A DNA stretch of 25,540 nucleotides, from the IMG/VR virus record IMGVR_UViG_3300001517_000005, positions 1 through 25,540 of that record; one strand, written 5' to 3'. A program made the translations under genes and the position numbers. Origin of the DNA: a virus. Shown piece after piece: positions 18,080-22,400 of this stretch. The notes beneath the pieces are model-generated. The model was not told the DNA's origin. It worked only from the letters and a program-made list of their open reading frames with translations, and ran no database searches. Each line of letters opens with the position of its first letter. Position 1 is the first letter of the stretch.

Positions 18080-19102
18080 TCAGTTCATTTCCTTCAGGAG
18101 TTCGCGCACATATTTAATATCATTATCAGTGCGTTTATTACCCTTTAAGAACAAATCATAGAAACTAGTCATTAAATTATTTATTTCTAGTGTTGATTTT
18201 TCTGGTGCTTTTGGATAACGGACAATTTTTACTACGCGCTATGTTTGTTTGATTTGTTTGATTTTATCCACAATGATAATTTCATCCCCGATATTTACAT
18301 TATCATCAATCTAACTTACAGCTAACTAATAACTGGCTTTTGGCTATGCAATTTCATTTAAATAATCAGTAGCTTTCTTTTTTAAAATCTCTGGAACCTC
18401 AATAGTTTCATCTATCCAAATCTTTTGGATATACTTGCCTGTATAACTATAGTTCTCTAAAAAATTACGACCATTATTTACATTAGCAATTGTTAAACCA
18501 TCTTTGCCAAAAGGATAAAGAACTGTAGCATAATCATAAGTATTGGAGTATTTCTTTAATAATTTTAAATTGAGCTCATTAGAATAATAAACCCCTAAAT
18601 TAGAACCCATTTTAGCATAAACATGCAATTGTTTATTTTTAGTATCAAACCAAACTTCTTGCCCGTAATCTTCTGCAATAGTTCGTATCATATCATAAGC
18701 ATTAACATTAGGTAATTGATAAGTAATTTTAGTGCGGTCATTACTATGATAATTAACGGTCCAACCAGTGCCAGATAAACAATAAGCATATCCTTGCTAT
18801 AAGTTCTTATCATAACAGTCAAAGGTCAAGAAAACTGTCCCTTTAATTGTTTCAATGTCGGCACTACAATAAACAGTAATAAACTTGTTATTATTACTTT
18901 TAATCTCTTTAATTATATAGTTATAATCATCAGTTTCTACATAGTTTTCTTCATCAATATAATTGATATATGTTTCGTCACAAGGCACTTCAAAGCACAA
19001 GGTGCGCTGCCCTGTGCTTAAAGTGTCAGTTGTATAAATGTTATTTATATTTGTATCCAAGAGAGTAAGAAAATGATGATGCGTATCATAGATTTTTAAC
19101 AT
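18080..19102 (-). CDS. Tail-associated (Tal-like) minor structural protein, Prophage_tail N-terminal type
   Basis: ATG 19100-19102 overlaps the upstream TAA (TAATG). The N-terminus MLKIYDTHHHFLTLLDTNINNIYTTDTLSTGQRTLCFEVP is typical of 'phage minor structural protein, N-terminal region'. Five TAG at 18797, 18344, 18326, 18311 and 18239. Frame checked. Stop is TGA 18080-18082. Confidence 0.8.
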
Positions 19103-19449
19103 TATAAATACCTCGCATTAAACTCTACTGAAAGTTGTAAGTGCGCGCCATTCTAAATACTAATCTTATTCTCTCCTGGTTGCAATTTGGGGAACTCCCA
19201 ACCATCATAATTATTAAAAGCAGAAACATCATTAACTGTGACAATGCGGTTCTCGCCATCAATTACTACAACATCATTAACACTAATGTTTGTCATTTTT
19301 ATAGGTTTTTGACTAACCCCTGTAATTGTTAAAACTACAAAATCAATCTATGGAATGATTGTAATTTTACAAGGGGCTGGGGCAGTCCCATTGTTAATAA
19401 CAGTGAAACTGTCCCCATCAAATGTTATTGGATAATAATTTTCATTCAT
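19102..19449 (-). CDS. Small distal-tail-protein (Dit) C-terminal-domain-like protein
   Basis: GGGGGA then ATG at 19447-19449. An alternative in-frame ATG at 19465-19467 overlaps the giant ORF TAA as TAATG. Sequence ..FTVINNGTAPAPCKITIIP[TAG]IDF...WEFPKLQPGENKISI[TAG]NGAHLQLSVEFNARYL resembles the C-terminal half of Sipho_tail/Dit proteins. Stop is TAA 19102-19104. Confidence 0.72.
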
Positions 19450-19466
19450 TTGATTTCCCCCAATCA

Positions 19467-22400
19467 TTATAATACTTCGCTTGTATTACCATCAATTTCA
19501 ATCCAACCTTGTCCTGTGTAGCCCCAATTTGGATTGTTATCGCAAGTATATAATACAGTAATGCGCTCGCCATATAAATAAGTTCCAACGCGATACTCAT
19601 TGTCTGCTATTGGGAAACTATAATAAATAGTATCTTTTGTAACAGCGTAATTTTTATTTAATGTTGTGGTTTGCGAACTTGTGTAAGCTCTTGGTATCCA
19701 ATGAGCGCCATCAAATAACATACCGCCAACAGTAGAAGGACAAGCATAATAAACTTTAATCAACGCTGGAGAACTACCATAATAATAATCGCTCCTTTGT
19801 CCTAACGTATAAATGCCTTGTGTTGGGTCATTATATACATAGAAATTAGAAATGTTACCAGGAACTAAAGCATATGTTGCCTCTTCTGGACGGATATAAT
19901 TATAATCTGCACCAGCCAAGGTCTCTAACTCATTACGCTTAACCCATTGGTCGCCAGATTTATCCCAGTTACCTACAATCTAATAAGTGCTATTTTCTTC
20001 AGCTTGTTTACTAATAGGCATTACTAAACCTGGTGTTAAATCACGAACTTTAATACTGTATTCATCAGGGTCGGTGTAACCAGCGCTTGCGGTTGTGGTG
20101 CGTTTATACAACATAACATCAGTCGTTGGATAATCCCAACCATTAAATAAATTATAAGCATTGCTCTCTTTAACTTCTTGATTGCGATAGAAAATCAATT
20201 CTTTGCCATCTGTTGTTGTGCCTGCATAAGTGCTATAACCAGAAAACTCTGCATTATTAGCATCACTGGCTCTAAAATTATAAGCAAAGTTACCAGTTAA
20301 TAAGTCAAACATACCATTATCAGGCATTCGCATACGCTCTCCATTATATCTATACCATAATCCTTTTGGAACTGGCACATAATAATGGACCATCATAAAG
20401 TCATAGTAACTGATTACATCATAGATAATACCATAACCTCTTTGATTAGATAAATCTTGATTGGCTTTTGGATTTTTATGATATCCAGCTAAATTAACAC
20501 TATCCGTATAAGGAGTATCCATACCATAAATAATATAAGTAGTTTCACGGTTCTCATATTCATTGCCAACACCAGACATAATAGTAGGTGAAGTTCTAAA
20601 ATTAGAATAGTTCATAATGAACTTGTCACCATTTTTAATAGTCTTATATGCTTCTGGTACTTCAACTGCTTCACCATAAGAACGAGCCATTATATTATTA
20701 TAAACAGTAAAACCGTCAAATGCTTTACTCTTATCTAATCGTAATGCCATACCACCAACAGTGAGGTTGTATTTTTCTACATAATAAGTAGTAACATTTT
20801 CTAATAAATCGTGGCGCCATTCACCAGAGACATAAACATCATAATGCTCTGTATCATTTAGAGACGCACTATAACCAGGAGCAGATAAATCAAACTTAAT
20901 ACCTGGATTTAACCAATAACTACGAGTTGTTTTATTTCCATAATAAGGGTCTTGTGTAACTAAATCATAATATCTATTAAGATAGTTGTGCTGAACCCAA
21001 ATCTTAAAGGTATCTGGGTCAAAGATTGGATATACAATATATTGAGTGCCGCATCTAATTAGTTCTTCAAAACTAAACTTAATGTTATCCTTATCCCAAG
21101 TACGTGGGTTCCAAAGGTAAATACCTTCACCATAACCAGTAGGACGGAATAAATTGCGCTCAAATCCAAAATAATCCCAAGTTAATGTTAATACAGTGTC
21201 GCGATATAAAGTTGGATTTACATCAACAGTGCCGCCATAAGCTGTAATATTGCGTAAATAATTCGCCATTACATAACCGCGCTCATCAGCATACTCTACT
21301 AAATACCAATTAGTAGTGCCGCCTTCTATAGCATCACTTAAGATATCAATAGTTGTTTCTGCTGGAATTACAGTAATTACTGTCGCATCACTATTGGCCT
21401 CTCTACGCATATTTAAAGCCTAAATTGTAGTAGCGGAACCTGGGATTTCTTCTACCTACCAAGAGGTGCTAATGAAAGTATCCCAATCAGGGTTCCAATC
21501 GCTAATAGAACAACTAAATGCAGATGCTCCTAATCTATTCATTTCGGCTTTATTATCTCTGTAATAAATACAGGAATAATTGTAAATGGTTTCTGGATAT
21601 ACAATATCAATACTATGTAATGCGCTCAATGCATTATAAGTGTATTCACCAGTATAGGTGTAATTACTATTATTGTGGAAGCGCATTTTATATTTTTGAA
21701 TATCAATTCCTAAATCGGCTAAACTATGAATATTATTAAAATCAAAGTCATCTAAATTAATAACCTCAATAGCAAGACCATTATATAACTTACCTGCTTG
21801 ATTAAAACTTATATCTTCGGCTTTAATCCAACTTTCAATTTCAGGAGCGTAGCACCATAATCTATCAATAGTCATTTTGGTAATATCTATGTACTCACCA
21901 AAAGGAACAAATGTAGCATCTTCTTGATATTCAGTAGTGATATTAAGATATTGCGCGAGCATAAAGCCTTGGTGCGATTGATATTGGACTGGTAACCATT
22001 CTGTATCCCCTGTAAAGATGCTATTGCCTGTAATATCTACTGTTGTGCCATTGGGAACTGCAGTAATTATATTAGTATCATTTATCATACTAGTAGAGGA
22101 CCGCAAATTAACACTGTCATTTGCGCTTCCAGACCTAACTTCTGCTTTGCCTAAACCAGTATCATAATCTGGGTTCTAACCAGGCCCTGTAATTGGTTCA
22201 GTAGCACTTAATAAAATCCAAGCATTAGGATACTCTTTAAGACGACCCCAACCATTACGTTCTTGTATGATAGTATAAATATCTCTATTTATAATCATTG
22301 CGAGGGTTTTATATTTGCGGGCAGGCCCATAATGCAATCCAGTATATTTATCAATAACTCTTACTTGGTAAGGGATAAACTCACCAAAGTCTTCATCTTC

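Follow-up and report, generated by a model that had tools for sequence, protein, structure and literature searches.

Can the two domains of a phage distal tail protein (Dit) be made as separate proteins? The question is raised by the tail-tip genes of IMGVR_UViG_3300001517_000005, an IMG/VR virus record whose 25,540 nucleotides were analysed at full length (the window). An earlier note on this DNA had proposed that the N-terminal domain of Dit heads a giant open reading frame (ORF) and that the C-terminal domain follows it as a small gene of its own. We found that residues 1 to about 135 of the giant protein are a Dit ring domain and that the 115-aa product of the next gene, here called DitC, is a Dit galectin-like domain. 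Dit has probably been divided at its inter-domain linker into these two polypeptides, and the split arrangement is conserved in hundreds of related uncultured, TAG-recoded phages of about 25 kb.

A TAG-recoded genome with a giant ORF

The first 150 bases of the window are identical to the last 150, and IMG/VR classes the record as 100% complete with direct terminal repeats; without the repeated copy the genome is 25,390 bp long. It has 35% G+C and carries nearly all of its genes on the minus strand. Long ORFs were open only when TAG was read as sense. With the standard code (table 11) and with table 4 the frames were shattered, and a giant ORF appeared in neither ORF list. TAA is the end of most genes in this genome, while TAG is found in almost every structural gene of its clade. 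No tRNA genes, and no suppressor tRNA, are encoded in the 25,390 bp. The window is a small gut phage in which TAG is read as an amino acid. It is like the 'Topaz' phages of Oscillospiraceae in small size and TAG recoding; these are temperate, 22 +/- 3 kb long, and have recoded structural genes and a TAG-free integrase (Borges et al., bioRxiv 10.1101/2021.08.26.457843). By this resemblance Topaz is likely to be the clade of the window. The portion of that preprint consulted holds no description of Topaz Dit architecture.

Because of the terminal repeats, the giant ORF wraps around the genome junction. On the minus strand it runs from ATG 3178 to position 1 and then from 25390 to 19470, a total of 3,033 codons, and stops at TAA 19469-19467. 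It holds about 30 in-frame TAG codons and no in-frame TAA or TGA over 9.1 kb. The start is preceded by a GGAGG ribosome-binding site (RBS) and overlaps the stop of the upstream gene as TGATG. The coordinates given earlier hold for a circular genome read on the minus strand.

The giant ORF begins with a Dit ring domain

The N-terminal ring ('belt', tail-tube-fold) domain occupies residues 1 to about 125 of the giant protein (2804..3178, minus strand). Residues 1-135 were searched with phmmer against 1.8 billion representative proteins, giving 116 matches, all of them at target residues 1 to about 125. These targets were sorted with a hidden Markov model (HMM) of the DitC family. About 47 of them, 226-261 aa long, have DitC at about residues 130-235 and are classical Dits; three of the four targets of about 360-410 aa (P0273, P0285 and P0297) have an insert within DitC and are evolved Dits; and all targets of 468-3,214 aa were without DitC. 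Residues 4-123 of the contiguous 236-aa Dit P0202 aligned to residues 3-123 of the giant protein with 46% identity (E 1.5e-24), and the domain was 42-43% identical to the contiguous Dit of the related loci L025 and L026.

An AlphaFold2 (AF2) model of residues 1-135 was obtained with a pLDDT of 75. Foldseek matched it to the Dits of SPP1 (2x8k; TMq 0.57-0.61, E 1.5e-4) and TP901-1 (4v96), to monocin 9j1k_K and to NF5 9m8o, with further matches to 80α 6v8i_AC, Bxb1, p2 and lambda gpM (8iyk_E). The sole PHROGs match of the domain was a weak one to the tail-protein phrog_6305 (E 0.03), tblastn against 50,697 deposited phage genomes gave no match, and PDB sequence profile searches with the N-domain and DitC alignments returned chance matches only. 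The suggestion that residues of about 1-130 form a Dit belt was upheld by the 42-46% identity to contiguous N halves and by the structural matches of the predicted fold to the SPP1 and TP901-1 Dits.

TAG codon 37 of the giant ORF lies inside this conserved domain and aligns to CAG (Gln) in the relatives L003 and L004 and to Q in contiguous Dits. TAG must therefore be read for a functional N-domain.

The next gene encodes the Dit galectin-like domain

The DitC gene (19102..19449, minus strand; 115 aa plus TAA) is read from 19449 to 19105 and stops at TAA 19104-19102. It has two in-frame TAG codons and is therefore invisible under table 11. Pfam SPP1_Dit (PF22768) matched residues 20-114 over the whole profile (1-97 of 97; 4.2e-12, 46.5 bits against a cut-off of 25), as did phrog_33, 'distal tail protein Dit' (7e-21). 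Residues 133-236 of P0202 were 38% identical to DitC (E 1e-23), and P0202 was the top match of the DitC-family HMM (2e-28). Since P0202 is also the best-scoring contiguous Dit for the N-domain, both halves go back to one and the same kind of Dit.

The AF2 model of DitC, built from a 32-row alignment, had a pLDDT of 89.7 and matched Dits with TMq values of 0.68-0.73: 80α 6v8i_AC, monocin 9j1k_K (0.73), SPP1 2x8k (0.70), Douge 8zdo_m and NF5 9m8o, followed by true galectins. Among the BFVD viral structures the best 50 matches were all full Dits of 208-848 aa, none of them a stand-alone protein of about 115 aa. The motifs on which the C-terminal half had first been recognised (NNGTAPAPCKITII, LQPGENKI and the ending FNARYL) were all found, and the full-length PF22768 match, the identity to the C half of P0202 and the Dit fold matches agree with that identification. 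The concern that the two pieces might belong to unrelated folds was not borne out: both models matched the same PDB Dit chains (2x8k, 6v8i_AC, 9j1k_K, 9m8o, 8zdo_m), one at the ring domain and the other at the galectin domain.

The break lies in the inter-domain linker

The giant protein keeps the ring domain and the start of the linker to about residue 135-140 (retained linker, residues about 126-140, 2759..2803, minus strand, from alignment with contiguous Dits), and its first repeat module begins at residue 141. DitC has the galectin domain from its first strand (residue 11 on), after a ten-residue peptide, M-x-x-N-Y-Y-P-I-x-F, without counterpart in contiguous Dits. Alignment of both halves to contiguous Dits thus places the addition in the inter-domain linker and not inside the galectin domain. 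Each Dit half is present exactly once in the genome. A TAA and about 2,900 residues do lie between the halves, as had been reported, and the two domains are not on one polypeptide. No direct repeats were found at the two insert boundaries, where the longest shared word was 8 nt, and an excisable insert was ruled out on this ground.

Both features described earlier for the boundary could be read in the sequence: the giant TAA (19467..19469, minus strand) overlaps ATG 19467 as TAATG, and a Shine-Dalgarno-like GGGGG run (19457..19461, minus strand) lies 7 nt upstream of ATG 19449. At the equivalent place L003 and L004 have GGAGG. Of 68 homologues, 62 begin at the site that corresponds to ATG 19449, with the sequence M-x-x-N-Y-Y-P-I. 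The giant ORFs of all relatives stop at TAA, and what follows the stop is of two types. In the window and in L001 it is TAATG with the ATG in the -1 frame; in L003 and L004 GGAGGA comes after the TAA, then another in-frame TAA, and the ATG is in the +1 frame. With such differing contexts there is no conserved read-through or frameshift product. The DitC stop in turn overlaps the start of Tal (TAATG at 19100-19104), and overlaps of stop and start codons link the giant, DitC and Tal genes in a chain.

The split is conserved among relatives

Stand-alone DitC proteins of 114-122 aa fell into 68 clusters with 53-98% identity, their contigs being about 25-28 kb long; giant proteins of 1,948-3,030 aa with >60% identity in the N-domain fell into more than 225 clusters. 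The order tube protein, two small ORFs, giant, DitC and Tal was found in the window and in all seven related genomes fetched, in which the giant protein has 2,761-3,035 aa with 6-21 in-frame TAG codons and Tal has 340-372 aa. TAG positions in the giants differ among relatives. In 120 giant homologues no DitC domain was detected at E below 0.4. Between the window and relatives the ratio of non-synonymous to synonymous substitutions (dN/dS) was about 0.09 for the N-domain and 0.12-0.20 for DitC, with dS saturated, which indicates purifying selection on both halves. The split state is ancient and conserved and no one-off. In the narrow sense of the 68 clusters the small protein does have a family of its own, a possibility that the earlier note had held against the split, but this family is the C half of Dit and occurs only beside genes for an N-domain plus extension.

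The proposed comparison of synteny was made with the sister clade L025/L026, which has a contiguous Dit. Identities to the window were 50% for TerL, 49% for portal, 39% for the major capsid protein, 38% for the tube protein and 37% for the Tal core. The layout in these contigs of about 20-24 kb is tube, two chaperone-sized genes, a tape measure protein (TMP) of 631-675 aa, the contiguous 236-aa Dit, and Tal (1,154-1,169 aa), with an 834-1,038-aa protein resembling a receptor-binding protein (RBP) and an Amidase_3 lysin beyond. We take this to be the ancestral layout. Of these, the window lacks the TMP, the first of the chaperone-sized genes, the RBP-like protein and the lysin. Its tube protein (3672..4064, minus strand; 130 aa; phrog_1407, 1.2e-21) is 38% identical to the Phage_tail_2 protein of L026. 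Its Tal (18080..19102, minus strand; 340 aa) has the structural N-terminal domain only (Pfam Prophage_tail, PF06605, 6.7e-34; Prophage_tailD1, 3e-07) and is 37% identical to residues 1-315 of the 1,169-aa Tal of L025. The sister clade uses the standard code: TAG is the stop of many genes and was absent in frame from all 11 genes checked in each locus. Despite their close relationship (TerL 50% identical), the two groups of phages differ in genetic code.

A second, intermediate split group was found (L009-L017 and 23 representative proteins of 468-1,054 aa). Its N-halves, which include forms of 614-690 aa, are extended by InlB-type B-repeats (Flg_new_2). The next gene encodes a separate protein of 213-237 aa with DitC as its last 100 residues, and a 334-340-aa Tal follows. 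This second protein begins with a Y-N-P-I-E-I peptide, similar to the N-terminal peptide of DitC. Its N-terminal domain of about 110 aa (consensus …YPNLQYNPIEI.DF..VE.YK…NGLGYCI.PI.G…) had no Pfam or PHROG match. It was considered as a diverged ring domain or second Dit paralogue and rejected (hhalign probability 0.4%; no BLAST match to the giant protein).

Across both split groups the DitC HMM gave E about 1e-5 and the N-domain E about 1e-55. In the N-domain tree the giants formed one strongly supported clade and the intermediates another, with an unresolved backbone. Constraining all split forms to one clade gave a better likelihood and was not rejected by the approximately unbiased (AU) test (p 0.79). 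A single origin of the split would therefore be compatible with these sequence data. Related-locus scans with the single proteins P0210 and P0202 gave no match. A tblastn search of deposited phage genomes with DitC found classical Dits only, for example in phiSM101 and in MT835666, which has a TMP and then a 231-aa Dit; a profile scan of bacterial genome contigs with DitC found one Clostridium metagenome-assembled genome, with the classical TMP, Dit, Tal layout.

The extension is partly repetitive

The body of the giant ORF consists of a first part (residues 141-1060; 1..2758, minus strand), open with TAG as Q, and a second part (residues 1061-3033; 19470..25540, minus strand), in which nt 25391-25540 duplicate nt 1-150. 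With an HMM built by iteration over 121 giant proteins, we found 14 copies of a beta-rich module of about 72 aa, consensus TVNYYKDDGGEY…KYKPEGY…, at residues 141-706, 967-1295, 1835-1975 and 2259-2324. Seven of them stand in tandem at residues 141-706 (nt 1061-2758, minus strand). After a non-repeat block of about 260 aa (residues 707-966, minus strand), further modules begin at nt 280, and others lie at nt 24684-25390, 22644-23066 and 21597-21794 (minus strand). The remaining non-repeat blocks are residues 1296-1834 and much of 1976-3033. Two SH3_3 domains were detected on the minus strand, at nt 21945-22112 (residues 2153-2208) and nt 21255-21419 (residues 2384-2438), with E values of 7e-14 and 2.6e-5; no carbohydrate-binding module (CBM) family was detected in the giant ORF. 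The composition of the extension is beta-rich, unlike a tape measure. Its description as about 2,900 residues of repeats therefore holds for the 14 modules and not for the large non-repeat blocks and the SH3_3 domains.

A motif recurs at the ends of three large non-repeat blocks (residues 707-966, 1296-1834 and about 2560-2790), in the variants …IYYDNVLIRDMIPV…LYDKVTKTFF…, …IYDQDRLVRDLIPV…GLFDLVTEIFF… and …YYVPVP…GMFDLLTGNFAYNF. It is also present in the extensions of the intermediates (…LVPIN…GLYDM…F) and suggests a repeated, unannotated head-like domain.

The SH3_3 domains are the sole cell-wall-binding domains found in the window. No endolysin was recognised there; the sister clade has an Amidase_3-SPOR protein.

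The tape measure slot

Dit genes usually lie directly downstream of the tape measure gene and directly upstream of tal. In the window the second position was found, with the DitC stop overlapping the start of the Prophage_tail gene, and the first was not. In the sister clade's TMP slot lies a small acidic protein of about 67-70 aa (3178..3390, minus strand), which in relatives has 50-64 aa with a similar C-terminal end. The endings of these small ORFs (…LAVKRR, …LRRGGNY) resemble the last residues of the sister TMP (…LALVNQRG). The small ORF was tried as a TMP remnant and set aside, as the similarity is confined to a C-terminal dodecapeptide and an HMM search gave no match. A drastically shortened tape measure, which would imply a very short tail, is only a lead from these sequences. 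The intermediate group likewise showed no TMP; the loci covered were the window, L003, L009, L014-L016, L027 and L029.

Comparison with known Dits

The classical Dit (SPP1 gp19.1 type) has the same ring and galectin-like domains, and its gene also lies immediately upstream of tal. The window differs in that the domains are on separate polypeptides, about 2,900 residues are added to the ring domain, and there is no recognisable upstream TMP gene. In the evolved Dits of Lactobacillus phages J-1 and PL-1, the lactococcal 936 group and S. thermophilus phages, one or two CBMs are carried in loops of the galectin domain of a single chain (PMC7291167). Evolved Dits carry extra modules for host binding, and the Dit of the window may do so too. 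In the window, however, nothing interrupts the galectin domain (Pfam 1-97 of 97), the addition is at the linker and larger by an order of magnitude, and the chain is broken. The earlier note's picture of evolved Dits, with their CBMs inserted in one polypeptide, agrees with PMC7291167; the insertion into a galectin loop that defines evolved Dits is not seen here.

Other Dits have only the ring, as lambda gpM (8iyk_E), or an alternative C-terminal domain, as T5 pb9 with its OB-fold (PMC7291167). They indicate that a ring domain works without a covalent galectin domain, but they are without any galectin domain, whereas the window keeps one, encoded next door and conserved. The Ceduovirus phages c2 and bIL67 build an Hcp-like hetero-hexameric ring from two genes, with C-terminal decorations and CBMs (PMC12474359). 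Two adjacent genes for a Dit-equivalent ring with peripheral decorations are found in both cases; in Ceduovirus both genes encode alternating Hcp-type ring domains, while the window has one ring gene and a second gene for the peripheral domain only. In the full-text literature on Dit architecture, which was not searched exhaustively, no case was found in which the two domains of Dit are encoded by separate genes.

In the baseplates of Gram-positive siphophages, Dit counts as an invariant hub of two domains; in this lineage ring and galectin domain are genetically uncoupled. The ring domain can also bear a fibre of ten times its size. This is relevant to the gain of host-range modules and to Dit as an engineered display scaffold. 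With an N half that has no Pfam match and lies in a shattered TAG-recoded ORF, and an orphan-like C half of 115 aa, hundreds of gut-phage genomes would be annotated without a Dit.

A model for the split Dit and the alternatives

We propose that six copies of the N-domain would assemble into a hexameric ring, with the tail tube on one side and the Tal trimer on the other. Each subunit would leave the ring periphery, at the usual galectin site, as a fibre of about 2,900 residues made of the beta-rich modules, larger non-repeat domains and the two SH3b cell-wall-binding domains. This fibre would be the main host-adhesion organ and would replace both the long Tal extension and the separate RBP-like protein of the sister clade. 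A linear outgrowth of 2,900 residues presumably cannot return to the ring, unlike a CBM inserted in a loop, and the galectin domain would for that reason be made in trans. DitC would be translated straight after the giant stop, through re-initiation or its own RBS, and would re-attach non-covalently to the baseplate. The invariant N-Y-Y-P-I-x-F peptide at its N terminus may be the docking strand.

Several points weigh against a Dit divided in this way. PF05709 (Sipho_tail) did not match the N-domain of the window, and that of the relative L014 reached 16.3 bits against a cut-off of 24.2. The N-domain model also matched other tube-fold proteins (Mu and Milano baseplate chains, tube proteins), and the assignment draws on homology to the N halves of contiguous Dits together with a predicted structure of medium confidence (pLDDT 75, TMq about 0.6). 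Beyond the two SH3_3 domains, the extension of the giant had no Pfam or PHROG match. With about 30 TAG codons, the yield of full-length giant protein depends on the mechanism of TAG suppression. Finally, no TMP gene was found in the complete genome by Pfam or PHROGs, nor by tblastn with the sister TMP, and the usual TMP-Dit-Tal initiation complex cannot therefore be assumed.

The main rival accepts the common Dit origin but moves DitC off the ring, where it would be a free galectin-like protein acting as a lectin or adaptor that caps or chaperones the giant fibre, anchors the 752-aa collagen-like fibre of this phage or binds host glycans. C domains of classical Dits are peripheral and without mutual contact (PMC7291167), so that a lost tether could free the domain. 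The DitC of the intermediates follows a novel domain, which shows that the C half can gain new partners, and DitC is less conserved between the two split groups than the N-domain. We nevertheless regard the relocation as unlikely, since DitC is strictly adjacent, with stop-start coupling, to the giant and Tal genes in 15 of 15 split loci examined, the stand-alone form is still nearest to the C half of the closest contiguous Dit, and direct evidence for another location is lacking.

Two further explanations concern translation. If TAG terminated in part, the giant frame would not be one protein, and the split would be a by-product of leaky recoding or the small gene would be decaying. No suppressor tRNA is encoded, and incomplete suppression of 30 TAGs in 3,033 codons would give truncated N-domain products. 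This is very improbable given that the first TAG already lies within the conserved ring domain and is CAG in relatives, that 9.1 kb are free of TAA and TGA while relatives carry their 6-21 TAGs elsewhere, and that 68 clusters, with identities as low as 53%, have an intact DitC, its dN/dS being about 0.1-0.2. To the idea that read-through, frameshifting or bypass is programmed and joins both ORFs in one chain, as a very large 'evolved Dit', we give next to no weight. It would suit a genome that already reassigns one stop codon, and in the window the two ORFs lie side by side, with a TAATG overlap at which a -1 shift would be possible. It is already contradicted by the junctions, at which the ATG is in the +1 frame after a second TAA in L003/L004 and in the -1 frame in the window and L001, so that no single recoding event is conserved. 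DitC also has a Shine-Dalgarno sequence of its own, its Met start is conserved in 68 of 68 clusters, and TAA ends most genes of the genome.

Dit divided between two polypeptides may be part of a larger change, which we put forward tentatively: a tail tip rebuilt across a lineage of uncultured Firmicutes phages, with the TMP lost or reduced to 50-70 residues, Tal to its 340-aa core, the RBP gone, the Dit ring turned into an adhesin of 600 to 3,000 residues, and the galectin domain supplied in trans. If true, this would be a distinct baseplate and tail-assembly architecture without a canonical TMP-Dit-Tal complex, possibly that of a stubby-tailed 'siphovirus'. The split co-occurs with the absence of a recognisable TMP; should that absence be borne out, the TMP-Dit-Tal initiation model would be called into question as a general rule, and the matter could be tested in this defined and abundant phage group.

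Other genes in the window

An LL-H-holin-like gene (12458-12847; 129 aa) and a second holin-like gene (6487-6702; 71 aa) were identified. The HK97-gp10-like Neck1 protein (4623-5216, minus strand) has 197 aa against 112 aa in the sister clade; its extra C-terminal residues, about 85, are helical and hydrophobic (…GGMLIGAAMLWLAFPILVNLYG…). The 752-aa collagen-like protein (6722-8980, minus strand) has G-X-Y repeats and matches to tail-fibre PHROGs. Its gene sits between the head-tail connector genes and the integrase, outside the tail-tip module, and it may be a second fibre in need of an anchor, possibly DitC.

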